Below, piece by piece: positions 3,230 through 63,400 of a stretch of 64,000 nt of DNA. The DNA comes from a virus. A model generated the notes under the pieces. That model saw only the letters and a list, made by a program, of their open reading frames with translations, searched no databases and had not been told where the DNA came from. The stretch is from IMG/VR virus record IMGVR_UViG_3300032223_001001, positions 1 through 64,000 of that record. One strand, written 5' to 3'. Each line of letters begins with the position of its first letter. The stretch's first letter is position 1. A program made the position numbers and the translations under genes.

Positions 3230-4624
3230 CTAACCTCTATTATAAGTATAATACCAACCTATAACCACATTACAACAATCACAACCTTCAATACGTACAT
3301 TAGTTATCGTTGGTGTTAACATAGTATCCGAAACACAACATATATCTGTAACCCCAATAAACGTTGACTTGGTATCGTTTGATAAATGTTGATTAATAAA
3401 TGGTCTATAACTACAATTTGGTGTAATAATATCCGACGCTACTAATTTATATGTTTCCCCACTACTTAAAGATAAGTTATTCCAAACTTTATTAGTTGTA
3501 GTAGTATACATTAATAAATAATCACACCTACTAGCAGGATTAGGTGTTGTTGTGTTAGAAATTGTCGTATTTGTTTCAGGAATTATAGTTGTTGATACTG
3601 GTTTTGTTAAACTATATGCTAAATTATTTGTTGCACTACCACTATATGGTGTTCTTGTAAATTCATCACTTAACGTTAAATCAAACGTAATTGTTACACC
3701 TGGAGGTAATGGTGGGTTTACATTTATATTATAGGTTAAAGTATATGATGTTTCACTTTGATTTGTGGTTATATCCGCTTGTAAAGTATATGTGATCGTC
3801 GGTATAACAGCATTAAGTGTTACCGAATCCCGATATATGTTACCTAAATTATCTTTAACCGCTAATGGATAGACACCTCCACATAAATTAGTGAACACCG
3901 GACTATTAAACCAATTCAACCCATTATTTATTGAATATTGAAATGGTGTATCTGGACCCGTTGCCTGAATGATAATACCCCCATCACATGTACATGTTGG
4001 ATTCGTCGCAGTAAACTTAAAACTTGTCACCGGTCTAGGTATACACACCCCTTGATTTACTGACACAGTACCAAAACCACCCAATAACTGCCACCCATTA
4101 AGTGGTGGATAGGATGGGTCTGGTGAAATAATATTCATTGTTGAACCAGATAATTTCCAGGACGTTATTGTTTGATCCCAATATAACTTATAAACCGAAT
4201 CTTGTGATATCCATGATTGATAACCCAAATATAACCCATTAGGATTAAATGTTATTTGGGTGAATGTTGTAAATGATTCAATAACTCTAGATATATTCAT
4301 ACACAACGTATAAGTTGGTTGTGGAGTAGTTGTTGTCGTAGTTGTCGTTGTAGTAGGTTGTGGTTGCGTTAAAACACATGTTGTATTTATTATGAAATCC
4401 CCATAATAATCCGTAACAGACGCACTATATTCACCACCCATTAAGTTGTGACGACTATTTGTTAAATTTCCATTATCCCATAAAATAGAATACGGTGGTG
4501 TCCCCCCAGAAATTATTAACGTAGCTGAACCATCCGAAGATGTCGGTGTGGTTGGATTAACAACACTACACTGCACATCCATAGGATACAATACTTTAAC
4601 TTCGCATTCGTTAATATTGGGCAT
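3230..4624 (-). CDS. SprB-repeat-like beta-rich virion protein with poly-Thr linker
   Basis: DGSATLIISGGTPPYSILW...VTD repeats; PQPTTTTTTTTTTPQPT. Confidence 0.65.
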   Translation of the reverse strand: MPNINECEVKVLYPMDVQCSVVNPTTPTSSDGSATLIISGGTPPYSILWDNGNLTNSRHNLMGGEYSASVTDYYGDFIINTTCVLTQPQPTTTTTTTTTTPQPTYTLCMNISRVIESFTTFTQITFNPNGLYLGYQSWISQDSVYKLYWDQTITSWKLSGSTMNIISPDPSYPPLNGWQLLGGFGTVSVNQGVCIPRPVTSFKFTATNPTCTCDGGIIIQATGPDTPFQYSINNGLNWFNSPVFTNLCGGVYPLAVKDNLGNIYRDSVTLNAVIPTITYTLQADITTNQSETSYTLTYNINVNPPLPPGVTITFDLTLSDEFTRTPYSGSATNNLAYSLTKPVSTTIIPETNTTISNTTTPNPASRCDYLLMYTTTTNKVWNNLSLSSGETYKLVASDIITPNCSYRPFINQHLSNDTKSTFIGVTDICCVSDTMLTPTITNVRIEGCDCCNVVIGWYYTYNRG

Positions 4625-4646
4625 ACTTGTTTTTATTTATAAATAA

Positions 4647-5627
4647 TCAAAAAGTCGTTTTTTTAACTAGGTTAACCATAACTTCAACATATTTTTTAGT
4701 TGCACTATGATTTTCAACGTAGTTAAAATAAGATAAGTCTTCTCGTAGTTTATCTAAAGGGTTCACCATAATGAAATCACCTTTATAAAATTTCGTGTTT
4801 CTTAAATTTTCCGTTATTCCCGCCATATGTAAAATGGGGTGTTTTTCATACATTGAAGTAGTATCTGTGGCCCAAGAAAAAGATAAATCATGATGTATCT
4901 TGGTTTGTTTACCTACCCTCCATAAATTCCATAATACCGACCACATTTCAGCCGTCCAGAATTGTATTTCACCTGGTGATATGGGAAATCGTTTTTGATA
5001 ATCTAACATCTGGTTATATAATGGAACACAATCTTCATAAATTTTATTCCATAATATATGATCCGTATCTTTTATAATATATTGACCACCACCAGAATTT
5101 AATTGATTATCTTTAATTAGTGTAACATCAATACCCACAACATCCACCATTTCCTGTAATAATTGTCCTTTTTGTGACGAGGGGTGGTGTAACTCGTATC
5201 TTTTACAACAATCCATTATATAATCATATCCAATGTACCCAATTGTGTCAGATACATATAAAATATCATCTTGTAATAATGTGTTATAATCTGGAAGTTC
5301 TCTAAAGATAATATCCGCATCATGTAAAAAAAACACCTTCCCATAAGAAGGATTTTCCTCCAACCATTTTGAAATTAAATAAGGTTTAATACTAGGAATA
5401 TAATATTTCTTGGATCTAGTGTCTTCGTAATGATGAACATTCACACCAAATTCCTTTAACCTTAAGGATGATTCGGAAGGTTTGGTATTCGGATTTATTG
5501 AAAATACAACATGTATATTTTTTGGGTTAATACCCTTCTCAATAAAGTTGTGAATATAAACCTCCGCTTGCCAATGAAAATATGGTACATCTGGTTGTGC
5601 TGTCACATATAACAAATCTTGATACAT
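4647..5627 (-). CDS. GT-A glycosyltransferase resembling plant peptidyl-Ser galactosyltransferase / Hyp arabinosyltransferase (GT96/GT95)
   Basis: Ordered motifs YFHWQ, YIPSIKP...WL, LHDADIIFR (DxD), GG, WTAEMW parallel recalled SERGT1 motifs YFDWQ, YPAINKP...WL, LDADMIIR, WISEMY. Confidence 0.7.
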   Translation of the reverse strand: MYQDLLYVTAQPDVPYFHWQAEVYIHNFIEKGINPKNIHVVFSINPNTKPSESSLRLKEFGVNVHHYEDTRSKKYYIPSIKPYLISKWLEENPSYGKVFFLHDADIIFRELPDYNTLLQDDILYVSDTIGYIGYDYIMDCCKRYELHHPSSQKGQLLQEMVDVVGIDVTLIKDNQLNSGGGQYIIKDTDHILWNKIYEDCVPLYNQMLDYQKRFPISPGEIQFWTAEMWSVLWNLWRVGKQTKIHHDLSFSWATDTTSMYEKHPILHMAGITENLRNTKFYKGDFIMVNPLDKLREDLSYFNYVENHSATKKYVEVMVNLVKKTTF

Positions 5628-5686: not shown

Positions 5687-6445
5687 TTAAAAAACTTGAT
5701 ATTCTGAAAATATTGAAAAATCAAGATTACCATCACCATCTAATGCGTCGGTGATATTACCATGTACTTTAATCATAAAATTCTTAAGTCCACACATGAC
5801 TTCCTTCATCGCATTATCGTATTTTTTAACCTTATATTCCAAATCATGATTTTCAAAACTAGTACCATAATTAGTAGTTACTGTAATACCAGAAGGTATA
5901 ATATCAAACACTGTCGTAGTACTCCCAGTTAAACAATCACCATATGTATTATTAACAAGATAATCCAAATATTCATCATATGTACCACCCCAAATGGAGG
6001 GGTCGATACCTTCATCAGAAAATGGATGGTCTGAAATAGTTAATTCATTCCAATTTAATTCAACACCATAGTCATAATAATACCTACTTAATTTATAGGT
6101 TTTCTCCAGTTCTAAACTAGAATTAAACCACTCCACAATTTTATATTGAAGTTCAATATACGTTTCCTTGAAGGAGGGGGTACAACCAGAATCAACCAAT
6201 GGTCCAGTAATATACCCCTCATCAACTGCAGTTGGTTTAGAATCAATGGCTAAAAACCATTCATTTAACGCTTTAAGAAACGCTTCCCTTGTTGTTCTAT
6301 AAGTTGCGAATTTGTCCCCCATAAAAAACCCTGGTCCCGCCCCACAACCAACGATTTTATCGGTCGCACCATATTCATACCAACTAGTATTTCCACTATT
6401 AAGTGCATTAGGTGTGTAATAATCATACAAATCAAAAAAATACAT
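5687..6445 (-). CDS. Hypothetical protein, paralog of the N-terminal domain of 6499..7845
   Basis: MYFFDLYDY, TREAFLKALNEW, YDNAMKEVMCGLKNFM motifs shared with neighbour. Confidence 0.7.
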   Translation of the reverse strand: MYFFDLYDYYTPNALNSGNTSWYEYGATDKIVGCGAGPGFFMGDKFATYRTTREAFLKALNEWFLAIDSKPTAVDEGYITGPLVDSGCTPSFKETYIELQYKIVEWFNSSLELEKTYKLSRYYYDYGVELNWNELTISDHPFSDEGIDPSIWGGTYDEYLDYLVNNTYGDCLTGSTTTVFDIIPSGITVTTNYGTSFENHDLEYKVKKYDNAMKEVMCGLKNFMIKVHGNITDALDGDGNLDFSIFSEYQVF

Positions 6446-6498
6446 AAAAGTTCGTTTTTAATAATAATAATCTTAAAATAATAATTGTGAACCAATTG

Positions 6499-7845
6499 TT
6501 AGTCACAATTAAAATCACTCCAAGATTCTCGTTGGCCAGGACAGAATGTTGACGTAGTTTCACAATCAATAACATTTTCATACATACATGGTAAAGTAGA
6601 CCCACTTGTTTCAATCATTCTTCGACCAGTAACCGGAAGTGCATTTTGTAAAGGCCACTTCTTAAATGGATGTAACAATAAATAATTACCAGCCCATACA
6701 AGTGGTTTTGTCGCCAATAGTAAATTCCTTACCGCTACCCAAACATTATTTTCATATTGTCTTCTAGGACCAGTTATAGTATCCTCGATTTGTAACGCTA
6801 ATGTTGTTGACCATGACGACGTATTAGGATTCCAAGCATAAGTAACGTTAGTTGAGCTTGTCGTATAAGGACCAACCATTATCACGTCACCAGCTTGTCC
6901 AACTAGTGGCAATTGCGAAACATCTGAAATTGATTTAACGTACCTAACATTATTTGTATACCCAGAAAATATTTCATTTAAAGATTGGGTATATCCCGTA
7001 TTGTCATACCAACCAGCATTTAAGTACGCTTTATATGGTATATAAACCTTTATCTTTTTAGGCACACCTCTAACATAGAAATTCCATGGCCAGGAAGTTG
7101 TTTGACCATAAAGTGGTGATGTCGGATCCATCATTTTGGTCAATAACTCCGTATTTGGTTGAATTGATGATAATTCAGACGGACAATAACCGATTCTAGA
7201 CTTAAGACCATAACTATTTGTTGACAACAACCATTCACTTCGTTGTTCTCTATAATCAGTGTGATAATCAAACACTTCATACCCACCTAAATTAAAATCC
7301 GGATATAGTTCGTTAAAATCACAAGTCGCACATTGTCTAGCATACCATGAATCAATTTCAGATGGTGTTGGACTAACCCTAGGATCATCCATAAAATCAA
7401 ACTGACCAAACGTAGTAACGCCTGTAACACAATTATTATTGTTACAAGGAATATAATCCGAAAACGTATCCCCATCCAAACAATTCATTAAGTTTTTTAA
7501 CAAACACATTTGTTCATACATCGCGTCTTGATACGCATTGAATTGTTGTTGTGTTAAATCAACCATATTATTGTCCTCAGCATTCGCCCAAAACTCAATA
7601 ATTCGAGTGTCCGCGGTTAAACTAGTAAATAAATCATCTTTTATTTGGTCACAACGTTCACAAACGGAAGGATCTTTATACGCCGTTGTCGCTAAATACC
7701 AATTATCTAGAGAGTTCAATATCGCATCTTTAGTTGCGTCAAAAGTCGATTTAACGTCATTCCAATCCCCATATAATGAAAAATCAACCGAGTTCACACC
7801 TATAAACCCAGATGTACAATAATCTTCTAAATCGTAAAAATACAT
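6499..7845 (-). CDS. Hypothetical two-domain protein (domain X + domain Y)
   Basis: N-terminus resembles 5687..6445; C-terminus resembles the C-terminal extension of 7848..10733. Confidence 0.7.
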   Translation of the reverse strand: MYFYDLEDYCTSGFIGVNSVDFSLYGDWNDVKSTFDATKDAILNSLDNWYLATTAYKDPSVCERCDQIKDDLFTSLTADTRIIEFWANAEDNNMVDLTQQQFNAYQDAMYEQMCLLKNLMNCLDGDTFSDYIPCNNNNCVTGVTTFGQFDFMDDPRVSPTPSEIDSWYARQCATCDFNELYPDFNLGGYEVFDYHTDYREQRSEWLLSTNSYGLKSRIGYCPSELSSIQPNTELLTKMMDPTSPLYGQTTSWPWNFYVRGVPKKIKVYIPYKAYLNAGWYDNTGYTQSLNEIFSGYTNNVRYVKSISDVSQLPLVGQAGDVIMVGPYTTSSTNVTYAWNPNTSSWSTTLALQIEDTITGPRRQYENNVWVAVRNLLLATKPLVWAGNYLLLHPFKKWPLQNALPVTGRRMIETSGSTLPCMYENVIDCETTSTFCPGQRESWSDFNCD

Positions 7846-23716: not shown

Positions 23717-25555
23717 TCAATTAAAACTAACCGTAGATAAATTCTTAACTCGAATATTAATATCCTTATTCGGAAACTTTATCTGGTATATCTGGGTTGG
23801 TTCCGCAAAAATTGTATCATCAATTAACTCAATTTCTTTAGTTTCATTGTCAACATATCGTTGCGAAGTTTGAGAAGAAGAATATTGTCCCCCAACCTTA
23901 TTAAACACCTTAATATCGGATATACTAATAACCCCATTTTGAGTTTGAATATCCCTCCTTAAGTCCGAAATAAATACATTTTGTCCCATCTGACGATTTG
24001 TAGAATCAAAATACGTTGATATTAAACCAATGATTTGGGATATAACAATTCCCTGGTTTTGACTATTATCCAACACAACATCAACATTAAGACCCAAATT
24101 AATAACATTTGCCGATTCAACAGATATATAATCATTCATCATACGATAATTCGATAAATAATTGCTAATATTGTTCATCAATGTATTGGATATGGATTCC
24201 GTTAAATTCCCGGATTCATCATATGACAATAACTTAATCTTAATTTTATTATTTTCTTCCGTTATCGAAACCTTCGCCGGAGCCCCAAATTGGGATGGCA
24301 TTGTTCTTAATATCGAATCATAATCATTGATTGTAACCGCTCTATTTTGTGCGGAAAAATTAAATCCAACCAAATTCCTAACCTCCTCCATTGTAGGAGC
24401 ACCAGCACCGCCAATGGCCGCCGTTACGTTATTACAACTCAATGAATTTATAACCGTATTGTTAATATTCTCCGATGGCCCATTCACAAAAAAGGATACA
24501 GTACCCACTTGCGTTATCACATTAACACCAACATTACTAGGTGTTCCACCACCAACTCTATATTGAATAAACAACGTGGAATTAGGTTTCAACACACTAC
24601 CCAAGGCAAAATTATTGGAATATTTATTCAAGTCCAACTTAAACCCATTACGAGCAAACTCCCTTAATTGTTCATCGGCAGATTGACTACCACCACCAAA
24701 AGTCATCTTCATAAAACCTTGTGGGGTAAATTCAGTAATAAACTTATCATTAGTAGAAATATATTTACCAACCTTAATACCAGGTTTATCCGATACTTTA
24801 GTAGGATCTTCAACAAACACTCTATCCTCCGCCAACGCTTTTACTTCGTACCAACGATTGTCAGCACCCAAAAACTCCTGTGCCGAAGGTACATTACTAT
24901 ATTGTGTACCATCCTTCAACAATACACTAGTGATACCCAAAACATTTTGTTCAGGCAAAAACATTTCAAAAAATGGGCGAACATCCGATGGATTAATAAC
25001 CCGTTTAAACACCTTCGTCGAACCATTAACCACCGTTTCCCTCTTGGTAATAGTATAATTAATCAATGTACCATTAACGTCAAAATTGGGAACTTTTAAC
25101 CTATTTGGAAACCCTTCCGCGTTTAATGGTGATGAAAAATCAATATCATTAACATTCTCAAAAACTTGTCCAGCACCCAATACTTGTGATCCACGTCGCA
25201 ATATACCACAATACCTTAAGTCCTCCTTATCCCCAAACGCGGGAACGGTAATAGAAAAATCAACCAACGCAACAGATGGTCTCTGCCCCGGAATCTTAAG
25301 ACCATAAGTCCTAGCAATATTATAAATGGATGATGGTTGTTGTGCATATTGTAACACCGTTTCCTGAATACTACGATCAATATTAAATTGTAAATTATCC
25401 GCAACGGCTGCATTTAAATCCAATAAAACCGAAAATATGGACGCATCATTGAAGTTATCCAATAATTCAGGATAATACGTCCTAGTGAAATTTATTAATT
25501 CAGCTCTAATAGATTGAAAATCCCTGGTTGTATATGATATCTTCTTGTTTGCCAT
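23717..25555 (-). CDS. Baseplate wedge protein (T4 gp6 / baseplate J-like)
   Basis: RDFQSIRAELI...NFNDASI; QNRAVTINDY; follows gp25. Confidence 0.85.
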   Translation of the reverse strand: MANKKISYTTRDFQSIRAELINFTRTYYPELLDNFNDASIFSVLLDLNAAVADNLQFNIDRSIQETVLQYAQQPSSIYNIARTYGLKIPGQRPSVALVDFSITVPAFGDKEDLRYCGILRRGSQVLGAGQVFENVNDIDFSSPLNAEGFPNRLKVPNFDVNGTLINYTITKRETVVNGSTKVFKRVINPSDVRPFFEMFLPEQNVLGITSVLLKDGTQYSNVPSAQEFLGADNRWYEVKALAEDRVFVEDPTKVSDKPGIKVGKYISTNDKFITEFTPQGFMKMTFGGGSQSADEQLREFARNGFKLDLNKYSNNFALGSVLKPNSTLFIQYRVGGGTPSNVGVNVITQVGTVSFFVNGPSENINNTVINSLSCNNVTAAIGGAGAPTMEEVRNLVGFNFSAQNRAVTINDYDSILRTMPSQFGAPAKVSITEENNKIKIKLLSYDESGNLTESISNTLMNNISNYLSNYRMMNDYISVESANVINLGLNVDVVLDNSQNQGIVISQIIGLISTYFDSTNRQMGQNVFISDLRRDIQTQNGVISISDIKVFNKVGGQYSSSQTSQRYVDNETKEIELIDDTIFAEPTQIYQIKFPNKDINIRVKNLSTVSFN

Positions 25556-25560
25556 TATAA

Positions 25561-26019
25561 TTAAATATTTAATATGATAAAATCACTCGCGTTAAACGCC
25601 CCTTCATTAATAGTATAGTCAATACGAACCCTCGCAACATGTTCAAGTTCCCCCAAACCAGAAACATTAACCTCACGGTCTTGTTCACCATTAACATAAT
25701 TCCCATCAACATCCTCAGATGCCGGTTTAATAGATATGTTCGTTATAGTTATCCCCGGAATATACTCCCCAACAGAATCCCGAATTTCAGACTCAATATC
25801 CGAAAAGGTGGGACCATCCATAGGTTCAAACAAATATTCATATAACCTCGTACCAAAATCGGGTAAATAATACCTACTCCCCTTCCTGGTCAAAATTAAA
25901 TGAATTAAATTGGATCTTATTTCCTCGTTGTTATCCAACGATAAATCCAAATATTTCCCATCAACAGAATCCCGAAACGGAAAATTTATTCCAATAGTAT
26001 AACCATACGCCATAACCAT
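25561..26019 (-). CDS. Baseplate gp25-like sheath initiator
   Basis: IRSNLIHLILTRKGSRYYLPDFGTRLYEYLFEP. Confidence 0.85.
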   Translation of the reverse strand: MVMAYGYTIGINFPFRDSVDGKYLDLSLDNNEEIRSNLIHLILTRKGSRYYLPDFGTRLYEYLFEPMDGPTFSDIESEIRDSVGEYIPGITITNISIKPASEDVDGNYVNGEQDREVNVSGLGELEHVARVRIDYTINEGAFNASDFIILNI

Positions 26020-26154: not shown

Positions 26155-27852
26155 TTAAGATGAACATCCAAAACACTCAAACGGAGAATCCGATGGTTTG
26201 GAAGGTGTTATATTAACCGTTGGAGTTTCAGTCTTTTTAACTGGTTGTTTGGTTTTTGAAATATCAATTGCCAAGTGTTTAGCCCCAGTTGAAATAGCTT
26301 TAGTCCTAACATAATAACATAAAGTCTTTAACCCCTTTTCCCAAGCATGGAAGTGTGATGATGTTATTTTAGATAATGTTGGATTACCCATATAGATATT
26401 CATCGATTGTGATTGGTCAATAAATGGTGCACGATCCGCTGCCATATTAATTAAATCACGTTGAGAAATTTCCCATATGGTTTTATACTTCTGGATTAAA
26501 TGTTCAATACGTTTAACCTTTTTAGTATAATTCTTATCTTCAGTATCCAAATAGTTATTGAAATTCACATTTTGAATCGATCCTTCATTTAAGATAATTT
26601 CATTCTTCAAGTCTTCACTCCAAATTCCCAATTTCTCAAAATCGTTAATTAAATACTTGTTAACAATTAAAATTTCACCACCAACAACACGTCTGTTAAA
26701 TAACGCAGAGTGTGCTGGCTCGGTCATTTCAAAAGAACCAGTAATTTTTGCCGAACTATTGTGACTAACACAACCATTTTCAGTGATATAATGATGCACT
26801 TCATCAACCTCAATATCCCACACTGGTTGAACCCCTTGAACGATAACTAATACCACCTTCATTATTCTTTTTTCAAGATTAACAATTCTATCTGAAACTT
26901 CAATATCTTTAACTTTAATCCAGATTTGTTGACCTTCGCGTTCAACTAAAAATTTATGTTCCGAACTACACTTAAAGATTACCCCATCTTCCATTTCAAT
27001 GTTGTATATTTCAGTATGACCATTGTAATAGATTTTGTTTGATAAATGATACCCATCCATTGTTTTAACTCTTAATGGTTTTTCAAAATTAAACCAAACA
27101 CCACCCGTTTTTTCAGATTCCACTTCATCAACATTGATATTATTCATTTCACAAATTTCTCTAAATGATAACACACCTTCTTCAGTGATAATTTTAGTAT
27201 CTGAAGTTTGACAAGCTACAGGCATCTGAGCGGTAAATAATGAATTACAAACACCATGTTGTTTCACTTCATTCTTTAGTTCACTCCAGTCCCACATACC
27301 AGTTAAATTATCTTCAGTTAAACCCCACATATCATACTGGAAGATACCTTCACTCATTGGACTTCCGTTGAAGAATTTATAAGGTTCATATTTACCATAT
27401 TTACACAAATCTTTACTTTCAGTGATCGCCGCGAAGTAGATTGTTTCAAAAATTTGTTTGTTCAATTTTTTAGCCTCTTCTGAAGTAAATACGTAGTCCA
27501 TAATATAAAACACATCCGCCAAACCTTGTACACCAATAGCAATTGCTCGTTGTTCAAGACCACCTTTTTTACCTTGATCTGTAGAATAACTATTAATATC
27601 AATAACCTTATTTAATGATCTAACAACTTTACGAACTTCATTATATAATAACGTAAAATCAAACTTCCCATCAATGATAAAATTCTTTAATACCAATGAC
27701 GATAACGTACATATAGCCGTTTCTGTCTCCGTTGTTGCTTGAAAAATTTCACAGTTGTGAACTAAAATGTTCGTCGCGTAAAAATTTTGAGTTTCCGGAA
27801 CTTGAATATCGTAAACGTCTTGTTTTTCTTCTAGTTTTTTAATCTTAATCAT
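26155..27852 (-). CDS. nrdA: Class Ia ribonucleotide reductase alpha, C-terminal half (split-intein IntC plus internal mini-intein)
   Basis: IntC ends ...VHN, then CEIFQ...AICTLSS, FIDQSQS, GLKTLCYY and C-terminal CFGC. Confidence 0.95.
   Translation of the reverse strand: MIKIKKLEEKQDVYDIQVPETQNFYATNILVHNCEIFQATTETETAICTLSSLVLKNFIIDGKFDFTLLYNEVRKVVRSLNKVIDINSYSTDQGKKGGLEQRAIAIGVQGLADVFYIMDYVFTSEEAKKLNKQIFETIYFAAITESKDLCKYGKYEPYKFFNGSPMSEGIFQYDMWGLTEDNLTGMWDWSELKNEVKQHGVCNSLFTAQMPVACQTSDTKIITEEGVLSFREICEMNNINVDEVESEKTGGVWFNFEKPLRVKTMDGYHLSNKIYYNGHTEIYNIEMEDGVIFKCSSEHKFLVEREGQQIWIKVKDIEVSDRIVNLEKRIMKVVLVIVQGVQPVWDIEVDEVHHYITENGCVSHNSSAKITGSFEMTEPAHSALFNRRVVGGEILIVNKYLINDFEKLGIWSEDLKNEIILNEGSIQNVNFNNYLDTEDKNYTKKVKRIEHLIQKYKTIWEISQRDLINMAADRAPFIDQSQSMNIYMGNPTLSKITSSHFHAWEKGLKTLCYYVRTKAISTGAKHLAIDISKTKQPVKKTETPTVNITPSKPSDSPFECFGCSS
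26758..27213 (-). mobile_element. Cis mini-intein (152 aa) in NrdA at MPVA|SS
   Basis: Starts CQTSDT; block B CSSEHKF; block F VWDIEV; ends SHN|S; no endonuclease. Confidence 0.9.
27754..27852 (-). mobile_element. Split intein C-fragment (33 aa) of NrdA
   Basis: MIKIKKLEEKQDVYDIQVPETQNFYATNILVHN|C. Confidence 0.92.
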
Positions 27853-27866
27853 ATTTTTTTTAGTTT

Positions 27867-28193
27867 TTAATCAATTATAACCATTTCATAATTAATATCC
27901 AATACATCATCTTCAACTAATTCATCTGCACGAACAAAACCTCTATTTTTAGTGAAAATTAAGTGATCTGGTGTACATTTAATCTTATATCCACTATCAA
28001 CATCTTCAACTTCCATTAATTCACTATTTTCACGAGTCATTTTACCAGTTAAGATATCAACAAATTTACCACCTTCACTTTTAACTTTTAATCGTTCACT
28101 ACAATTAATTAAGTCTATCACTTCGATCATGGTTAATGTTTCAACATTACCATTTTCACGTTGGACGATTAATTCAACGTCCCCAGTTAAACA
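27867..28193 (-). mobile_element. Split intein N-fragment (108 aa) of NrdA
   Basis: SNLC|CLTGD...KCTPDHLIFT..RGFVRADEL, then stop. Confidence 0.92.
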
Positions 28194-29471
28194 ACATAAG
28201 TTAGATTGTTTAATAACTCCGATATTCTGGTGATTCGTTTTTCTATTTGCGTTATCTTTAGCCGCCAAATAAGGAACCCCCGTTTCAATTTGTGATTCAA
28301 CGATACGATTCCACACATCCAACGCTTTTACTTTTTTACCAAGACCAAGATTTACCGCTTTAGTATAATTTTGTTCATACTCGTCCCCATAACATTCTTG
28401 TAGAGGTTTAATACCCGCTTTAATAACATCATTTGGACAAAATAAATACCAATCATGATTTTCTTTTACAGCGTTCATGAAGTTATCCGGAATCCATAGT
28501 GCCGTAAATAAATCCCTAGCTCGCAATTCATCTTTACCGGTATTCTTTTTAATATCCAATAAGTCAAAAATATCTTTATGCCAAGGTTCAATATAAATCG
28601 CCGCACTACCTGGTCGTCTACCTTGTTGGTTAAAGAATCTTAATGATTCGTTTACAATTTTAAGATATTTTAATAATCCCCCAGCGTAACCACCAGATGT
28701 TGTGATTCGACTTTCTTTAGATCGAATGTTTGACATACACAATCCGATTCCTGCTGCGTCAGATGAAAATGTTGATATATCATTCAAGGTAGCCAATAAA
28801 CCTTCTCTAGAATCCCCATCGTTATAATGTAACACACATGATGCAAGTTGTGGAACCAATGTTCCAGAGTTGATCATAATTGGTGTTGCTTTAGATACCA
28901 GTTGTTTAGTTAAGGAGTGATAATAATCAATTGCTTCTTCATATGTATTCGTCACCCATAAGGCAATACGCATATACATATGTTGAGGCCGTTCGATTGG
29001 TGTACCTTTAGAGTTTTTCAACAAATACATTTCTTGTAGGGCAACCCATCCAAAATAATCAAAATTATAATCATTATCATGAAGGATTTCATTATCCAAT
29101 TTTTCTGGACCATAGTTATCAATTGACGTGATAAGACGTTCATTGATGATACCTTCCTTGAATAACACCTTCATTGTTTGACTAAAACTTGGATTTGTCT
29201 CCTTATGGTATGAAGATATCGCAACGTTTGCAGCCAATTTGGAATAATCATGATGACTACCCGTATATGACGCAGCTATTTCATATACCAACCTATCCAA
29301 TTCTTTTGTTGTTATAACCCCCTCGGTTGGTACGGAAGTGATCACCTTAATGAAAATTTCATCCGAGTTTACGTTCAACCCTTTAGCTGAACGTTTAACT
29401 CGTTGATAAATTTTTTGTGGGTTGAATGACACTTCTTCACCCCCCCTTTTTCTAATTCTTAATGACATCAT
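27867..29471 (-). CDS. nrdA: Class Ia ribonucleotide reductase alpha, N-terminal half (ATP cone; ends in IntN)
   Basis: ATP cone, ERPQHMYMR, ATPIMIN, QLASC, QQGRRPG, ETGVPY, KQSNLC. Confidence 0.95.
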   Translation of the reverse strand: MMSLRIRKRGGEEVSFNPQKIYQRVKRSAKGLNVNSDEIFIKVITSVPTEGVITTKELDRLVYEIAASYTGSHHDYSKLAANVAISSYHKETNPSFSQTMKVLFKEGIINERLITSIDNYGPEKLDNEILHDNDYNFDYFGWVALQEMYLLKNSKGTPIERPQHMYMRIALWVTNTYEEAIDYYHSLTKQLVSKATPIMINSGTLVPQLASCVLHYNDGDSREGLLATLNDISTFSSDAAGIGLCMSNIRSKESRITTSGGYAGGLLKYLKIVNESLRFFNQQGRRPGSAAIYIEPWHKDIFDLLDIKKNTGKDELRARDLFTALWIPDNFMNAVKENHDWYLFCPNDVIKAGIKPLQECYGDEYEQNYTKAVNLGLGKKVKALDVWNRIVESQIETGVPYLAAKDNANRKTNHQNIGVIKQSNLCCLTGDVELIVQRENGNVETLTMIEVIDLINCSERLKVKSEGGKFVDILTGKMTRENSELMEVEDVDSGYKIKCTPDHLIFTKNRGFVRADELVEDDVLDINYEMVIID

Positions 29472-31171: not shown

Positions 31172-31447
31172 TTAATCTTTTTTCAAAAATAATTTACTCC
31201 CAACAGTTAAACCACTTTGAATCGATAAAAACTCGTTATTATCCGTTGGAAATCTATGTTTTGCAGAAACTTTAATTTCTTTACCAGATTTTGTTTTTAT
31301 CTTATAAACTGGTTGTTTTTCAATTGGAAATACATAATTAACTTCTTTATATCCTTCGTGGGTCATAATTTTATCCCCCAGAATAACATCCTTAATCATA
31401 ATATCCCCTTTATTTTGAATATTAACAATAGTGTCAAGACTAACACA
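31172..31447 (-). mobile_element. Split intein N-fragment (91 aa), gp41-1-like
   Basis: CVSLDT...GYKEVNYVFP....YKIKTKSGKEIKVSAKHRFPT...SGLTVG resembles gp41-1 IntN. Confidence 0.9.
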
Positions 31448-33286
31448 ACGACCACCTTGAGTTCCACACCACCCAACTAAATCTAATTCATGGCACATTG
31501 ATTCAAACCCACGCATTACAGCACCTTCAGCCTTCCATTCGTTTTCAATTTGACGATCCGATATAACACAATCAATATAATCCAAAACAACCATATCAAT
31601 CTTGACACCGTCCGCGATCATTTTACGAATCTTATTCTTAATTTGTGAAACTGTCACGTTGTCCGATGGCATCTTACACAAGATCAACTTATTGTCCATG
31701 GTTGATTCAATTTCTCTAACACGTGCTAGAACTTCTTCCTTCCTACTCGTTAATTCGTCCGGATGAATTTTTGTCCATAACGTATAATGTTTACGTTGAA
31801 TAATCTTTTTGTTGTCCTCAAAAAAGATTTGTAGTACATTATACCCATGATTAAACGCACTATTAGCGATTTTGGTTAACATTGTGGTGTTGTGTGTTAA
31901 AACGTAGTCCCTGGATACATATAATTCATCCGGATTGGACACCTTAATACATACAGCTTCTTCATCGTGGGAATAAGTGATTGACTTAACATATTTTTGT
32001 TGTACTGGTTTATTAGCCTCAAGATATTTGTTAACCTTATTTAACACACCAAATGGAATTAAACCAGTTGTAAATGTTATTCTAAAAGTACCCCCCATAT
32101 CTTCAATTATACCCCCTAAAGATAACACTAATTCTCTAATAACTGTTTTATTACCATCATTTTTTTTACAAATAATATATCCCTCACCATCCATGGTTGC
32201 TAATGAATCAAACAAACCCCTTAAGAAGTTCAAACGAACATTAACCGTGTTATAGATATATTTTGAACATTGTGTTATTGTTATTTCTTCAGTGATCACC
32301 TCCCCATCATATAAGGACAATCCAAATTCATATGAATCATCAACATCTTGGGATTGAAATTCAACTGGTTTAACCATTGGTAGTTGATATACATTTCCCT
32401 GGTTTAAACCATCCATGATATTGTTTGCAGTTAATACAACAAATTCTTTTGAATTATTTTCCTTCACCGTCCATAAATGTTCAAGTCCACAATTCACAAA
32501 CGTATTATCCATAAATTCAACCTTATAAATCGGTTTTACTCCTTGTGGATATTTTCCCAATACATACTGTTCCTTACCGTCACTACCGATAACCTTTTCA
32601 CCAATATTGATTTCCCCCATTGTTGTCCAACCAGATGGTGTTAATAATGGTTCAGACACACCATGTTCCTTCCCAACACCGGTCGGCGCAAGGACAACCC
32701 CAATTTCACCCTTGGCCAAACCCCCCTTTAATAAACGATCAATACCAGGTATCCCCATCGGGATTGGGTGACGATAATCTTCCTCCAATACATCATCAAG
32801 ATTGGAGAAAACATCCATCATATCGTTATCATGTTGTCCCACCTGGAGGGCGTCACGAACCAGTTGTTCCACCTTATCATAATTCTCGAATTCACCCCCA
32901 TCGATAATCTTTTGGGCTTTAACCATCACCTTTTGCAATTCTTGTTGTTTACAGAATTTCAAGGCTTTTTCTTGAACAAATTCTTGTCCATCGACTGGTG
33001 ATTCTTGAATTTTCTTGATGGTATCAATAATCAACTTGGAAGCACTTTCTTGCGTGATTTCCGATAACGTGATTTGTTTTAATGTATCATAATTCGGTAC
33101 ATTTTCGTATTTGGAATGATATTCCTTGATCATCTGAAGAATCAACTTGAAATACTTGTTTTCAAAATAATTCACGTCAATAACATCAATTATCGTTCTA
33201 GCGAAATCCTTATCAACTACCAATTGATTCAATAGTTGTAGCTGAAATCCACTACCCAAATATTCAAAATTTTTATTCTTACTCAT
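31172..33286 (-). CDS. dnaB: DnaB/gp41 replicative helicase N-terminal part, with a cis intein and terminal split-intein IntN
   Basis: Walker A APTGVGK|T interrupted by an intein; Walker B VVLDYID; TQGGR|C. Confidence 0.93.
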   Translation of the reverse strand: MSKNKNFEYLGSGFQLQLLNQLVVDKDFARTIIDVIDVNYFENKYFKLILQMIKEYHSKYENVPNYDTLKQITLSEITQESASKLIIDTIKKIQESPVDGQEFVQEKALKFCKQQELQKVMVKAQKIIDGGEFENYDKVEQLVRDALQVGQHDNDMMDVFSNLDDVLEEDYRHPIPMGIPGIDRLLKGGLAKGEIGVVLAPTGVGKEHGVSEPLLTPSGWTTMGEINIGEKVIGSDGKEQYVLGKYPQGVKPIYKVEFMDNTFVNCGLEHLWTVKENNSKEFVVLTANNIMDGLNQGNVYQLPMVKPVEFQSQDVDDSYEFGLSLYDGEVITEEITITQCSKYIYNTVNVRLNFLRGLFDSLATMDGEGYIICKKNDGNKTVIRELVLSLGGIIEDMGGTFRITFTTGLIPFGVLNKVNKYLEANKPVQQKYVKSITYSHDEEAVCIKVSNPDELYVSRDYVLTHNTTMLTKIANSAFNHGYNVLQIFFEDNKKIIQRKHYTLWTKIHPDELTSRKEEVLARVREIESTMDNKLILCKMPSDNVTVSQIKNKIRKMIADGVKIDMVVLDYIDCVISDRQIENEWKAEGAVMRGFESMCHELDLVGWCGTQGGRCVSLDTIVNIQNKGDIMIKDVILGDKIMTHEGYKEVNYVFPIEKQPVYKIKTKSGKEIKVSAKHRFPTDNNEFLSIQSGLTVGSKLFLKKD
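31889..32668 (-). mobile_element. Class 3 intein (260 aa) in the helicase P-loop with degenerate LAGLIDADG remnant
   Basis: Begins with E (not C/S); WCT triad in EHLW, AVCIKV, LTHN|T; remnant FLRGLFDS. Confidence 0.85.
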
Positions 33287-35074: not shown

Positions 35075-35200
35075 CTGCTCTTAAACTAGTACTTAAATGT
35101 AAGTATTTCGTAAATATCCGTTATTTAGACGGACAAGTTGTTTGAATTAACAACTGCCTAAGCCAGGCAACTTTTTATTTTTTTCGTCTTTTAGTTTAAT
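35075..35200 (-). ncRNA. Putative omegaRNA scaffold (3' part) of IS607 element A
   Basis: Consecutive hairpins TGCCT/AGGCA, GTTGTT/AACAAC, TCCGT/ACGGA, TACTTA/TAAGTA between the tnpB 3' end and the element end; 5' boundary unknown. Confidence 0.55.
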
Positions 35201-36310
35201 ACCGATCGGTTTGAATGTTCCGTTATAAACACGTTTAATGTTTATTGAACCATTTTCATCTCTAGGTAAACTAACACCACACCAAACACAATTAAACACA
35301 CGATCTTTAACTGTTAGATTGTGTTTAACGTGTTGACAACAACTACATGTTTTACTGGTATAACTTTCATTGACTTTTTCAAAAATCTTCCCACATTGTT
35401 TTGCTTTATATTCTAATAAAAACGTGAAAATACTTATTGCTGCGTTTGAATATGATCTACTAAAGTTTTTTTGTTTTTTAGTGTTATCACTTTCCATTAA
35501 TTTCTTAACGTCAAACTTTCCAACAACAATGATATCTTCTTTAACTTGTTTTATATATTTTGTACTTTCTTTTTGCACATAATCATACCTAGTATTTTTT
35601 AAACGTAAATGGGTTTTATTTAATTGTTTTTTAACTTTTTTACGTCTTTTACTAGTTAACTGTTTACTTGATAATGATTTATTTAATTCAGCAATTCTAG
35701 CTTCATATTTTTTAATTAATTTGGTTGAAAATCTTTTAACTTCGTATCCATTAGAATCAACCATTAAACTTTTTAACCCCAAATCACAACCAACAACATC
35801 GTTATTATATCTCACTAATAAATTTGGTATTGCATCACATGTAAATACCAAAAAATAATCGTCATTTTCTTTTTTAAGTTTTACCCCAGTGAAATCATTT
35901 GGGAATGTTTCAACTCCTTTAATACCATTTTTAATTTTCGGTAAATACACTAAACCATTCTTAATTCTAACATCTGTTTTAGCAAAAAAAATGGAACTAA
36001 AGTTATCATTGGTTTTATGTTTTGGAAATCCAGAACCATTAAAGAAATTCTTAAACGAAGCTGCCACTCTAAAAACAATTTCTTGTAAAGACTTATTTGG
36101 AATGTCATTCCAACTAGTGTCTTCTTTTTTTAATAAAGTTAATTCTTGTTTCTGAACGTATTTATTTAATGTTTTTCCGGTACCTTGGTAATAATAAATG
36201 TATTGGTCAATACAAACATTATACAATGTTTTACATCGTCTTAACCAAAATTCAAACGTATTGAAATTTGTTTTGTTAATTATTAACTTTATTTTTTTAG
36301 CTTTTTTCAT
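35147..36310 (-). CDS. tnpB: TnpB with rearranged (Fanzor-like) RuvC site
   Basis: GCDLGLK; IIVVGK (no canonical E); VNESYTSKTCSCC; CVWC; RDENGSINI. Confidence 0.9.
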   Translation of the reverse strand: MKKAKKIKLIINKTNFNTFEFWLRRCKTLYNVCIDQYIYYYQGTGKTLNKYVQKQELTLLKKEDTSWNDIPNKSLQEIVFRVAASFKNFFNGSGFPKHKTNDNFSSIFFAKTDVRIKNGLVYLPKIKNGIKGVETFPNDFTGVKLKKENDDYFLVFTCDAIPNLLVRYNNDVVGCDLGLKSLMVDSNGYEVKRFSTKLIKKYEARIAELNKSLSSKQLTSKRRKKVKKQLNKTHLRLKNTRYDYVQKESTKYIKQVKEDIIVVGKFDVKKLMESDNTKKQKNFSRSYSNAAISIFTFLLEYKAKQCGKIFEKVNESYTSKTCSCCQHVKHNLTVKDRVFNCVWCGVSLPRDENGSINIKRVYNGTFKPIGIKLKDEKNKKLPGLGSC

Positions 36311-36905
36311 CTTTAATAAAGTCTTTAATTTTATTTTTATACGTTCTTAAACCATATAATCTAGATGAAAAAACATGAATGATACTCATTAAATCATTAA
36401 CCATTTCTTCTTGCGGTGATACCTTTTCATCATTAATAACAATTAATTCAACATTGTTTTCAATACATAATTCCTCGATTAATTCAAAACCAAAACGAAC
36501 TAATCTATCTTTGTGAGCTATAATTAGTTTTTTAATTTTATTTTTGGTTATTTCATTAACCAATTTAATAAAATTTTTTCTTTTATAATTTAATCCAGAA
36601 CCAATATCACTATAAACTTCATCAATATGGATTTGGTTATTCAAACAATATTCTTCAATAAAACTTATTTGTGATTTAAGATCATCTTTTTGATTAAATG
36701 ACGATACACGACAATATATAATTGTTTGTTTTTCATCAACAATTGAACTTTGGTTATTGATAAATTCCAAATATTGTTCGTGTGAATATTGTTTACGACC
36801 TTTTGGTGTGTACATGACTGGTTTGTAAATACCTTCGTTATCCCAACGCTGTAGAGTACGAACGTGTTTATTAATTAATTTAGCAAATTTACCAATAGAA
36901 TACAT
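36297..36905 (-). CDS. tnpA: IS607 TnpA serine recombinase
   Basis: MerR-like HTH followed by YCRVSS, DIGSGLN, HKDRLVRFGF, VFSSRLYG. Confidence 0.95.
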   Translation of the reverse strand: MYSIGKFAKLINKHVRTLQRWDNEGIYKPVMYTPKGRKQYSHEQYLEFINNQSSIVDEKQTIIYCRVSSFNQKDDLKSQISFIEEYCLNNQIHIDEVYSDIGSGLNYKRKNFIKLVNEITKNKIKKLIIAHKDRLVRFGFELIEELCIENNVELIVINDEKVSPQEEMVNDLMSIIHVFSSRLYGLRTYKNKIKDFIKDEKS

Positions 36906-40394: not shown

Positions 40395-40986
40395 CTAATA
40401 TCTGTTTAATTTTATCAATTGAATTTTTATTTTGATGACTTCTACTACCATATAATTTTGATGAAAACACAGTGATAATTTCAACAACATCATTCACAAA
40501 TTCAGATTGACTATCTAAATGATGGTTATCGTTAATTATTTCAATTTCAACATTCTTCAATTCACACAAAAAATAAATTAATTCATAACCAAAACGAATT
40601 AAACGATCTCTATTAGTTAACACAATTCGTTCAACTTCATTATTATCAATCATTTTGATTAATTCTAACAAACCTTTTTTCTTGTAGTTAATGCCAGATC
40701 CAAAATCTTGGATTAATGTGAAATTATATCCTTTAGACGAACAATAAAGACTTAACATTTCAACTTGTCGTTCCAAGTCTTTATTCTGTCCTCGAGTACT
40801 AACTCTAGCGTACGCTATTGTTTTTCTTGTGTTGGTTTGATTTAAGTTTTTTATGAATTGATTTTCATCATATCGTCTATGACCACCTTCGGTTCTAAAA
40901 GAAGTTATTTTTCCTTCACGTTCCCATCTACGCAGTGTACCTGCGGCAATATTTAATTTTTTTGATAATTGTGAAATCGTTAACAT
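40384..40986 (-). CDS. tnpA: IS607 TnpA serine recombinase
   Basis: TLRRWE...TEGGHRRY, YARVST, DFGSGIN, DRLIRFG, FSSKLYG. Confidence 0.95.
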   Translation of the reverse strand: MLTISQLSKKLNIAAGTLRRWEREGKITSFRTEGGHRRYDENQFIKNLNQTNTRKTIAYARVSTRGQNKDLERQVEMLSLYCSSKGYNFTLIQDFGSGINYKKKGLLELIKMIDNNEVERIVLTNRDRLIRFGYELIYFLCELKNVEIEIINDNHHLDSQSEFVNDVVEIITVFSSKLYGSRSHQNKNSIDKIKQILDDK

Positions 40987-41050: not shown

Positions 41051-41503
41051 TTAATTTTTTATTGACTGTTTAAACCCCAAATTATTATAATCACCGGTTC
41101 TAAATAAATTACCATTAAGTTGATATTTCATTTTTGATGAAATCACATCAACATCATTTTCTTCAAAATATTTAACGATGGTCATTATATAATCCTTTTT
41201 ATATATTTCATCATCATCAATCTTGACAAAAATGTCATATTCATCATAATTATTAACCGCAAAAATAGCGTTCATATGATTATTATGTTGGTGTTGGTTA
41301 GGTGTAAATATTACTGAATTCTTATCACTTTTTAAGTCATCAAAAATTTTAACCATATCAATTTCTCTATTCACAACTTGATTAATTGTTATATTAACCG
41401 AATGAAATATATTTTGGTATGTTTGATTTGTTATATCTTGTATACAACTTCTTAACATTTTTAATCTACCCAAGCTTGGTGTAAAACATAATATTTTTTT
41501 CAT
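41051..41503 (-). pseudogene. N-terminal part of a GT2-like glycosyltransferase disrupted by IS607
   Basis: ILCFTPS.GR..ML...I..I.NQTY, KIDDDEIY; last 7 aa derive from the IS. Confidence 0.8.
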
Positions 41504-60423: not shown

Positions 60424-63400
60424 TTAGATGTTGTCAAAAGACGCCCCAGATGGTGTGATATAGAATGTAATATCGATAAATTCTAGTGCGGCGGTTGGTT
60501 TGATCCAAATCTTCCCCGTCATTTGCTTACGATCCAAGTCAGCAGCATCTGAAGATACCTCAACTCTAAAGTCGTATAATCCACGATCACGTCTAATTGA
60601 GTCTAAAATTGGATTTACCGCGTTTAAGAAGTCTTGTCTAACCTTGTCATCATTTTGTTCGAATAAAAGTCTTACAGACACCGCAGAAATCAATTTACGA
60701 GCTTGTAATAACAATCTTCTAACGTTCATTCTGTTTAGAGCAGAATCTTTAACTTGAAGTGTTTTGTTACCCCAAATCACAGTACCCACGTCTGAGAATG
60801 TAGCGATAGGATTTAATCTACCATTGTACAATACATCACGATCTTCTTGTGTTAACTTTTTACGAGCTTTAATTGAATTAACAATACCTCTAGTATAACC
60901 AGCTGCCGCAAACCATGGGAATGCAATGTTATCTGTTAAAGCGATGTTTTTAACAACTTCACCAGTTGGCGGTAAATAGATTTGTGTATTATTATCCGTA
61001 TCTTTTGTTAATACCCAAGGATAATATGTTGCAGTATAGTTAGAATCAATTCCAACGTTATCTAAATTATCTACCGCTTCTTGTGGATAAATTAATTCAG
61101 TTGTTCCTGCGTTAGGTGTTAACATGTTATAATCTGGTGTTGTTGTAACATAAATTGAATCCGCACGATCATTTTCAATCATATCAACAACTTCTTCAAC
61201 TAAATCTGAATTGTTAACATAATCAATACCTGGTGATACGAATACGTTGATATTCACAGCTTCAGGGTTAGCAAATGTTCTATAACCTAATAAATAAGCA
61301 TAATAATCCGAGTTACCCCAATCTTGTGTATTATCACCAACAGTGATTTGTTTGAATGCTCCCCATCCAGTCGCATTAGGGTATTTCACTGAACATGTTG
61401 GATTAAATCCTTTTAAGAAACCAGTTCTACCGATTTTATATTTATCCTCGTTAGTTCTACGTTCTCTATATATATCCCATCCGTCAAAACCTCCAGCTAC
61501 AAGTAAAGTAAATTTACGAGCGTAAAGTCTGTAATAAGGGTTTGATTCATTTGTAGGATCTGAAGTAAATTCAGCATTACCAACATAATAAGCAGATTCT
61601 CCACTAGTTGTATAACCATTTGGAATTGTTATTGACGCAGCATTAACATCCATATGGAATCCTTTTGTTTTATAAACCCAAGAGTCACCAGTTGAATCAC
61701 ATGGGGATAGAGGAGCTTGCTTACCTTTATAACCAAACATACTAATATCCACACCCATTTTATCGGAAATACCTAAATAAGTACGTCTAACATTGTCACC
61801 ATTACTAATAGTTTTGTTATCACCACCAGTTGTATAACCAAAAGGAGGATTGAAGATTTCTTCACCTGGATAATCGTATTTAGTTTTATAGATTGGGAAT
61901 GATGGTTTAGATTCAGCATATTGTCTATTTTCATACCCCTCGAATCCACAAGGTAAAGCCTCGATTGGTGCGTTTTCATTAACCTCAACCATAATAAGTT
62001 TAGAGTTTAATTGATATTCACCATCACTAGTACCTATTTTTTTAGCGATATAACCATTGTCGCTAGGATTCATATTACAATTTGTAAATTTCTCCAAAAC
62101 AACCGGACTTTCATCTGTATCGAAGAAATCACGAACCAATACATCGAAGGTACCATTATTAAATGATATGTTAGCAATTGAAATTTTAACTTCAGTATTA
62201 GCACCAACACCATCTGAAATAGTTGTGAATCTAAATAATTCATATACTTTACTACCACGTAGTTCAGAAACTACCCATGGTGAGCTAGGCGTTTGATATT
62301 GTTCCAAATACCAACCAATTGAAGATGAATCCAAATTTCTCGATTCAGGCAATGCTGTTAGATCACAATTTAATCCACGGATATATCCTTTTTTATATGC
62401 GTAGTTTAATAACACAGGATAATTTTCTTCAACGAATACTGGTACAGATTTTTTATCTTTACCGAAGTTGGATGTTCCAAATACTTTTGATAAGTATTGT
62501 GTATCCGAATTCATAAATGATGTTTCAAACGTAAAATTAGAACCATCAATATTTTTAACATTCAACGCAAATTTAGCGAATGGGTTTTTATTTACCCCAG
62601 AATATTGTCCTGAACATACCATTGATACATCCGTTAATCCTGAAACTTCATAAACCGCACCAGCACCATCTGCATTGTTACCACGTGAACGTAAAGTTGC
62701 TATAACTAAATCATCATATTGTGTATAAGCAACACCTGAATAAATGAAGATTGTACCAATTAAATTACCAGTATAACAATCTGTTGGTTTTAATGTTGTC
62801 GTAGTTGTAGTAGTTGTTGTTCCAGTTGGAGCACAAGGATTTGTAGTTGTCGTTGTAGTCGTTGGAGGTATTGTTGTAGTCGTTGTCGTTGAAGCTGAAA
62901 TTAATGTTAATCCGTCAACCACCGAGAAAAATGAAAAACCAGAATAACTAGCGTTCCCATTATTATCAAACAATGAATAATACCATGGATCATTTTTAGG
63001 TGACGTGAAATCGATCACTGAAGCGTCAACTGAATCAACACCATAAGTGTTTGTTGATGCGGTAAACCCTAAATTCGTCATTGCCGAATAAATTGTACCA
63101 GGGACTGCACCATAATAACTAATTGAATTTCCTTCCGTACTTGGAGCGTTAATAACGTCGAATACTTGACTTTTTAAGTCATATGATAAACTAGATGTTG
63201 AACCATTAAATTGTTCATATTGACTAGTTAATTTCATTAATATTTCATCTGGGATTGCTGTTTGGTCTAAAATAATTGAATTAATATCATTATTACAACC
63301 AGTAAACGGAATTAAGAAATCAACAGTTTGATATTCAACACATTCGTCAACACAATCAATAGTTGTTGCACTAACACAATTAAAATCAATCGTATTAGGA

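Follow-up and report, generated by a model that had tools for sequence, protein, structure and literature searches.

A candidate virion O-glycosylation system in phages: a distant relative of the HPAT/GT95 glycosyltransferases encoded beside proteins with poly-Thr tracts

To our knowledge, experiments have established glycosylation of the phage particle in only a few mycobacteriophages, in which it changes recognition by antibodies. As set out in two accounts that summarize Freeman et al. 2023 (PMC12363180, PMC12619734), the mycobacteriophages Che8, Corndog, and Myrna glycosylate the C termini of capsid and tail-tube subunits using, it is proposed, transferases of their own. Here, we analyze a 64,000-nucleotide stretch of viral DNA (the window; positions 1 to 64,000 of the IMG/VR record IMGVR_UViG_3300032223_001001), in which the gene of a predicted glycosyltransferase of the family phrog_4417 lies directly before the gene of a fiber-like protein carrying a run of ten threonines. 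Virion O-glycosylation of such poly-Thr tracts is the best reading of the comparative data, and we hold it with good confidence. A poly-Thr virion target is favored because the enzyme and tract genes adjoin each other and are gained and lost together in several independent lineages.

Capsid and tail-tube proteins with C-terminal extensions figure in the Che8-type system and are also encoded beside relatives of the window's transferase gene, where they are candidate substrates. On profile comparison, the phrog_4417 enzyme is unrelated to the Che8 transferases. By Pfam, Che8 gp108 combines GT2 with a methyltransferase, and gp109 and gp110 are of GT2-like and GT25 type, respectively; comparison of the latter two with the phrog_4417 family by hhalign returned probabilities below 1%, gp108 being typed by Pfam only. 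Whereas the Che8 transferase genes sit at the right end of the genome, away from their substrates, phrog_4417 genes adjoin those of the tagged proteins. Moreover, the phrog_4417 tag is near-pure poly-Thr and its hosts are Bacillota and Bacteroidota, unlike the mycobacteriophage system. The tracts of the window are internal linkers, in the fiber-like protein and the tail sheath, in contrast to the C-terminal tags of mycobacteriophages.

The source record spans 81.8 kb and is estimated to be 28% complete, which implies a jumbo phage of roughly 290 kb; lake, freshwater, and estuary labels hint that it is an uncultured freshwater phage. The elements at issue are as follows.

4647..5627, minus strand: predicted GT-A glycosyltransferase (soluble, 326 residues, P0001, phrog_4417), from the translation, PHROG match, structural model, and conserved residues
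3230..4624, minus strand: SprB-repeat fiber-like protein (464 residues, P0002), proposed substrate; Pfam SprB, E 4e-10
4325..4354, minus strand: T10 tract, candidate glycosylation site; residues 91-100 of the SprB-repeat protein, in mixed codons
60424-63756, minus strand: tail sheath with a large insertion, second proposed substrate; phrog_23, E 8e-54, and Pfam Phage_sheath_1/1C
62794..62889, minus strand: T6, T7, and T9 runs in the sheath insertion, from the sequence, codons, and tract scan

An earlier reading of the window made from its letters and open reading frames (ORFs), here called the sequence-only reading, had placed the transferase directly upstream of the SprB-repeat protein, and the two ORFs are indeed separated by a gap of 22 bp. 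It had also reported a PQPT10PQPT stretch in the SprB-repeat protein and a Thr-rich insert in the sheath, and both are present: exactly ten Thr residues are flanked by QPQP and PQPT in the former, and the T6, T7, and T9 runs of the latter fall within residues 290-321. Within the ~20,400 ORF residues of the window, four T runs of at least six residues were seen versus ~0.004 expected from composition. All four fall in the SprB-repeat protein and the tail sheath, and the tract scan found no such tract in any further ORF of the 81.8-kb record. The T10 run is coded by a mixture of ACT, ACA, and ACG, which makes it no DNA microsatellite; a replication-slippage artefact was set aside for the same reason.

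The model of the SprB-repeat protein (predicted local distance difference test [pLDDT] 82, predicted template modeling score [pTM] 0.49) shows four beta domains arranged as beads on a string. The T10 region (residues 90-98) connects the first SprB domain to the one after it and has a pLDDT below 50, suggesting an exposed, flexible linker. The sheath has 1,110 residues, of which Phage_sheath_1 and Phage_sheath_1C cover only 828-1101; ~700 residues of extra domains thus precede the canonical ones, as in other jumbo phages.

The pairing of enzyme and tract recurs among the relatives of this phage. In the 80 closest viral loci, which we treat as the clade of the window, the enzyme is always kept, at 56-70% identity. 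T tracts occur at positions +1 to +4 after the enzyme in 37%, 49%, 16%, and 22% of loci, respectively, and in 0-5% of the upstream genes. Homologues of the SprB-repeat protein directly follow the transferase in most relatives and diverge faster than the enzyme (33-48% identity), and the linker after the first SprB domain keeps a fixed position and consists of poly-T/S or (PT)n in 20 of 20 aligned homologues. Loci retrieved with an alignment of the SprB-repeat protein yielded 52 distinct proteins. A T/S run of at least six residues is present in 32 of the 41 homologues with the enzyme adjacent versus 0 of the 11 without it (Fisher 3e-6), the enzyme-less ones having (PT)n or nothing in its place. 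Apparent T runs in five enzyme-less relatives were rejected, being a bare T5S in a folded segment of a 1006-residue ORF and not mucin-like.

Joint gain and loss was followed in one siphovirus tail-tube family. Its homologues were retrieved with an alignment trimmed of the tails, so the tag could not bias the search, and the 72 loci with enough downstream sequence were counted. Seventeen combine a C-terminal poly-Thr tail with the enzyme gene directly after it, 55 lack both, and there are no discordant loci (Fisher 7e-17). In a tree of the tail-tube core without its tails, enzyme and tail change about 10 times, always together, and at least four of these changes are forced by well-supported branches. 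The capsid and a head protein of ~105 residues are tagged too in the enzyme-bearing siphoviruses. Among the siphovirus prophages, two tags from one phage end in the same suffix in 29% of pairs, versus 10% for pairs between phages, as if the tag moved as a module. The capsid and tail-tube tags of these prophages (L176-L254, L137-L159) often share endings (...TSA, ...AAV, ...SHA, and ...QA); examples within one phage are ...TTTTTTSA twice, ...AAV twice, and ...SHA twice.

The association is also found across unrelated phages. The bacterial-genome set comprised 80 loci, with the gene at position -1 scored in 75. A T tract is present in the gene directly upstream of the enzyme in 30 of these 75 (40%) versus 31 of 1053 (~3%) elsewhere (Fisher 5e-22), and secondary peaks, found at -5/-6 and +5, match the places of the capsid, a small head protein, and the tail tube. 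The tagged proteins span the major head families phrog_10 and phrog_840 and the major tail families phrog_88, phrog_117, and phrog_14018. In Bacillota siphoviruses, the enzyme gene comes immediately after that of the major capsid or major tail protein. Short forms such as P0001 are accompanied by a tract no more than eight genes away in 27 of 31 loci. The sequence-only reading had called for a check of whether the gene accompanies poly-Thr virion proteins, and the counts at -1, on tail tubes, and in the SprB-repeat homologues all support such co-occurrence.

A tblastn search placed the gene in 77 isolated phages, whose hosts are Enterococcus, Lactobacillus, Staphylococcus, Lactococcus, Clostridium, and Chryseobacterium; Mycobacterium phages are absent from these matches. 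In Enterococcus phage phiFL1A, the enzyme gene comes after a major tail protein ending in ~21 T/S residues, and the capsid also ends in T7. Likewise, in Lactobacillus phage Bacchae, it follows a 115-residue 'major tail protein', half of which is (T5ST3VKP)n, and in Clostridium phage FA88, the tail protein before it ends in TIAPTTTTSTSQV. Genes upstream of the enzyme in Chryseobacterium phage MA9V-3 carry S/T tracts of 21 and 63 residues.

The PHROG assignment of the 326-residue protein is phrog_4417 ('unknown function', E 1e-68). A Pfam scan of the protein gave no match at E up to 1, and phmmer and profile searches of PDB sequences gave chance matches or none. The family comprises 1,356 near-length homologues in a 90%-clustered collection and 837 clusters at 50% identity; it is mostly viral (BFVD, ESM Atlas), and its members carry no annotation beyond 'hypothetical'. 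In an alignment of 61 diverse members at 29-71% identity (A1), D105 and H267 do not vary and D103 is kept in at least 90%, forming a DxD...H signature of the kind expected for divalent-metal and NDP binding. The four motifs quoted in the sequence-only reading are all found in the ORF, as YFHWQ (residues 16-20), YYIPSIKPYLISKWL, HDADIIFR (with D103 and D105 as the DxD), and WTAEMW.

An AlphaFold model built on A1 (pLDDT 97.4, pTM 0.94) shows a single Rossmann-like GT-A domain, with a Foldseek probability of 1.00 and agreement from an all-against-representatives VIA-align search. The closest solved folds by VIA-align Z are glycogenin (14.7), UGGT (14.2), the Skp1 alpha-galactosyltransferase GlaT1 (14.1), and LgtC (14.1), followed by WbbM (14.0), GlyE (13.8), and LARGE1 (13.2). 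The top matches align over 210-248 residues at 7-12% identity, and the nearest fold group is that of the retaining GT8/GT24 enzymes. Longer relatives fuse the family domain to Pfam GlcNAc (GT60), O-FucT, GT6, or Glyco_transf_7C, and one relative of 1,915 residues joins it with GT4, GT2, and an FkbM methyltransferase; that fusions to transferases and to a sugar methyltransferase recur points to a role in building glycans. With a GT-A fold at Z 14-15, a conserved DxD and His, and fusions to glycosyltransferase domains, the original assignment of the ORF as a glycosyltransferase stands, and we predict this activity with high confidence. A structural protein was considered for the ORF and set aside on account of the conserved catalytic residues. 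The protein has no membrane segment or signal peptide, its N terminus MYQDLLYVTAQPD entering the first beta strand at residue 6. Two-domain forms of 560-590 residues, with an additional Glyco_transf_7C or GT6-like domain, occur on Chitinophaga, Pedobacter, and Mucilaginibacter chromosomes (e.g., L101, L106, L109, L113, and L116-L118), where their neighbors lack poly-Thr.

HPAT enzymes transfer L-arabinofuranose onto hydroxyproline (Hyp), and SGT1/SERGT1 (CAZy GT96) is a peptidyl-Ser alpha-galactosyltransferase. The plant and algal HPAT1-3 (GT95) and SGT1 (GT96) are peptide O-glycosyltransferases, the role proposed for the phage enzyme, and act on repetitive, extended, hydroxyl-rich tracts. They differ from the phage enzyme in their acceptor, which is Hyp or Ser instead of the proposed Thr; in addition, HPAT/GT95 enzymes have a type II membrane anchor and reside in the Golgi lumen, whereas the phage protein is soluble and lacks an anchor. 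GT95 has been described as related to GT96 (PMC8012813).

The sequence-only reading had called the phage enzyme plant-type (GT96/GT95-like), a claim that, for GT95, holds at the level of distant profile similarity and not at that of Pfam membership. One Actinomycetota PF23452 gene was used to gather 129 homologues, mostly annotated PF23452, and 31 of these bacterial proteins, with no plant enzymes included, formed a second alignment (A2). Comparison of A1 with A2 by hhalign gave a probability of 90.2% (E 1.6e-6) over 254 columns, which extend across both domains at full length, with the PYxxWQ, DxD, WxxxM, His, and YK motifs in register; against a single PF23452 member, the probability was 49% (E 1.7e-4). 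The Pfam HPAT model matches 1 of the 61 members of A1, at E 0.09, and ESM Atlas lists HPAT on 10% of one neighboring cluster. The model had no match in the 81.8-kb record, a weak blank since 14 control genomes were equally silent. On 39 bacterial genomes with family members, it matched only separate PF23452 genes, in three Actinomycetota, and left the family's own domains unmatched. By these alignments, phrog_4417 is a distant relative of the HPAT lineage and, by the Pfam criterion, not a member of it.

In three metagenome-assembled genomes (MAGs) of Actinomycetota (L107/L167, L096/L169, and L100/L168), a family-domain protein of ~1,000 residues is encoded ~4 kb from a bona fide PF23452 gene, and these pairs look like chromosomal glycosylation clusters holding both superfamily branches. 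Many bacterial HPAT-family proteins (P0391-P0414) carry a fused PqqD domain (PF05402), which serves as the peptide-binding element in pathways for ribosomally synthesized and post-translationally modified peptides, and this hints that the bacterial HPAT branch glycosylates peptides. In the record of Enterococcus phage 9183, the annotation of its phrog_4417-family copy is by similarity to a 'PqqD family peptide modification chaperone'.

We propose that the enzyme would act in late infection as a soluble, cytoplasmic, metal-dependent GT-A transferase. It would transfer the first sugar from a nucleoside diphosphate (NDP)-sugar donor onto the Thr hydroxyl groups of poly-Thr tracts in proteins of the phage's own particle, ahead of or in the course of assembly. 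In this phage, the candidate sites would be the T10 linker that joins two domains of the SprB-repeat protein and the T6, T7, and T9 runs clustered in the presumed surface insertion of the sheath. In unrelated Bacillota siphoviruses, the substrates would be the C-terminal poly-Thr tags on the capsid, tail-tube, and small head protein. We infer Thr as the acceptor, exposure of the window's tagged proteins on the virion surface, and retaining chemistry, as well as the donor sugar and any elongation. The benefit could be a stiff, hydrated, protease-resistant, or shielding mucin-like coat.

Enzymes of similar fold are known to modify proteins. Glycogenin, UGGT, Skp1 GlaT1, and GlyE, the protein-glycosylating enzymes of the GT8/GT24 clade, match the model at Z 13.8-14.7 over 210-243 residues and share the DxD site. 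Pneumococcal GlyE acts on Ser/Thr-rich repeat adhesins in the bacterial cytoplasm. However, at 7-12% identity and with lipooligosaccharide (LOS)/O-antigen enzymes scoring equally, this likeness denotes a shared fold and not family membership. A virus-encoded GT-A enzyme, A64R of chlorovirus PBCV-1, glycosylates its own major capsid protein in the cytoplasm. A64R is also among the fold matches, at a Z of 11.0 that is weaker than those of the GT8-like enzymes, and it differs in belonging to another family, coming from a virus with a eukaryotic host, and making atypical N-linked glycans.

Several observations weigh against glycosylation of virion poly-Thr tracts. For the sequence-only reading, a best structural match to a DNA- or lipopolysaccharide (LPS)-modifying enzyme would have counted against its proposal. 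No DNA glycosyltransferase is among the best matches by Foldseek and VIA-align, but the LOS/O-antigen enzymes LgtC and WbbM tie with protein-modifying ones. Since the tied matches mix acceptor classes, the fold says 'glycosyltransferase' and not which acceptor. The 326-residue protein does not reach the threshold of Pfam HPAT (PF23452), with no match at E up to 1. The SprB-repeat protein has a weak PHROG match, and its place in the virion is presumed. Nine of the 41 enzyme-bearing SprB-repeat homologues have only (PT)n or no run, and in Enterococcus phage 9183, the enzyme gene follows an untagged capsid. Long two-domain forms on Chitinophaga, Pedobacter, and Actinomycetota chromosomes have neighboring tracts in 3 of 27 cases, and the link to poly-Thr thus does not hold throughout the family. 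Although no enzyme homologue was found anywhere on ten of the enzyme-less contigs, these are only 7-51% complete. Finally, related loci share ancestry, and the Fisher values therefore overstate independence; a strict independent-pair test on supported branches of the tail-tube tree gave 4 of 4 (p 0.125), too few for significance.

Three other explanations were weighed, and the position of the gene together with its co-variation with the tracts makes each of them less likely than glycosylation of the tracts. The enzyme could modify a glycan of the host envelope, whether on LPS/LOS, capsule, teichoic acid, or a glycoprotein of the host, so as to exclude superinfection or mask receptors, with the tracts serving as unrelated flexible linkers. 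The tied matches to LgtC (LOS) and WbbM (O-antigen) would fit such a role, as would the long-form relatives in bacterial chromosomes without nearby tracts, and serotype-changing phage transferases are well known (PMC12619734). We nevertheless regard an envelope target as unlikely. The gene sits within late structural operons, right after capsid and tail-tube genes and not by lysogeny modules, and it also occurs in lytic jumbo phages. Moreover, the enzyme has neither a membrane segment nor a signal peptide, and an envelope target would leave the 72 of 72 concordance with the C-terminal poly-Thr tails of tail-tube proteins unexplained.

It is very unlikely, in our view, that the protein is a tract-binding assembly factor or chaperone with a GT-A fold but no catalysis, the tracts being bare or glycosylated independently. 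Its location, flanked by the major tail gene and the tail chaperones, does recall assembly factors. However, the DxD and His show complete or near-complete conservation in the 61 members of A1 and align with the same residues in PF23452, and the repeated fusions to other transferases and a sugar methyltransferase speak for catalysis. Hypermodified phage DNA is a target that we consider highly improbable. DNA glycosylation against restriction is known from T-even and other phages. Many phage transferases act on DNA (PMC12619734), and a base-hydroxymethylase could sit elsewhere in a genome of which ~28% is in hand. In this ~28%, the 81.8-kb record, no thymidylate-synthase-like (PF00303-like) gene was found, and the best fold matches include no DNA glycosyltransferase. 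The family is also found in small temperate prophages, within structural modules, and DNA modification would give no reason for joint gain or loss with poly-Thr tails.

Building on the preferred reading, virion O-glycosylation of the tracts, we propose with moderate confidence that phrog_4417 supplies the enzyme for a phage 'glyco-tag' system that is widespread and as yet undescribed. In such a system, a soluble HPAT/GT95-related transferase would read portable poly-Thr tags and lend a mucin-like coat to capsids, tails, sheaths, and fibers in phages of Bacillota, Bacteroidota, and other phyla. Full-text literature searches found no paper on phrog_4417 or on poly-Thr tags of phage proteins. If the proposal is correct, plant extensin-type peptide O-glycosyltransferases belong to a lineage with deep relatives in bacteria and viruses that act on Thr tracts, and an enzyme family different from and far more widespread than the mycobacteriophage one does the same job through a recognizable poly-Thr tag. 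A large 'hypothetical' family (>1,300 near-length homologues, >800 clusters at 50% identity) would then gain a function, and glycosylated virions would become predictable from sequence alone. This would be relevant to phages of enterococci, staphylococci, lactobacilli, clostridia, and flavobacteria and to abundant freshwater jumbo phages. It would also bear on phage therapy (immunogenicity and stability), dairy phage biology, and the mass-spectrometric annotation of virion proteins, and it would offer a compact enzyme-plus-tag pair for glyco-engineering. Because cultured carriers exist (e.g., Enterococcus phage phiFL1A, Lactobacillus phages Bacchae and LP65, and Chryseobacterium phage MA9V-3), the reading is directly testable.

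Nearly all genes of the window lie on the minus strand. Besides the tail sheath, its recognizable structural genes include the following:

23717-26019, minus strand: baseplate wedge genes

Also encoded are a baseplate hub, ribonucleotide reductase, DnaB-like helicase, and UvsX-like recombinase. The baseplate genes are followed downstream by a row of large ORFs without a PHROG match, some with SprB, PKD, or Ig-like repeats, and the transferase and SprB-repeat ORFs come after this row, all on the minus strand. The earlier placement of the transferase inside the structural gene cluster is roughly right; it lies downstream of the baseplate wedge genes, and its immediate neighbors are at most putative virion proteins. 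Just upstream of the transferase (5687-7845, minus strand) are ORFs of 252 and 448 residues, the latter with weak Kelch-like matches only.

Two IS607-like elements, at 35147-36905 and 38847-40986, are found among the replication genes. Each consists of a serine-recombinase TnpA (~200 residues, phrog_6620) followed by a TnpB-like ORF (387 and 515 residues, respectively). Directly abutting one of them is a 150-residue ORF (41051-41503, minus strand) that scores barely above the Pfam GT2 threshold (26 bits) and covers the first ~130 of 168 model positions; it may be a second, possibly truncated, glycosyltransferase able to elongate a glycan. The large subunit of the ribonucleotide reductase is encoded as two adjacent ORFs that cover profile positions 60-489 and 488-781. 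Internal stretches of the second of these ORFs and of the DnaB-like helicase match 'recombinase', 'terminase', or 'endonuclease' PHROGs, which suggests inteins or homing-endonuclease insertions in both genes (26155-29471, 31172-33286).

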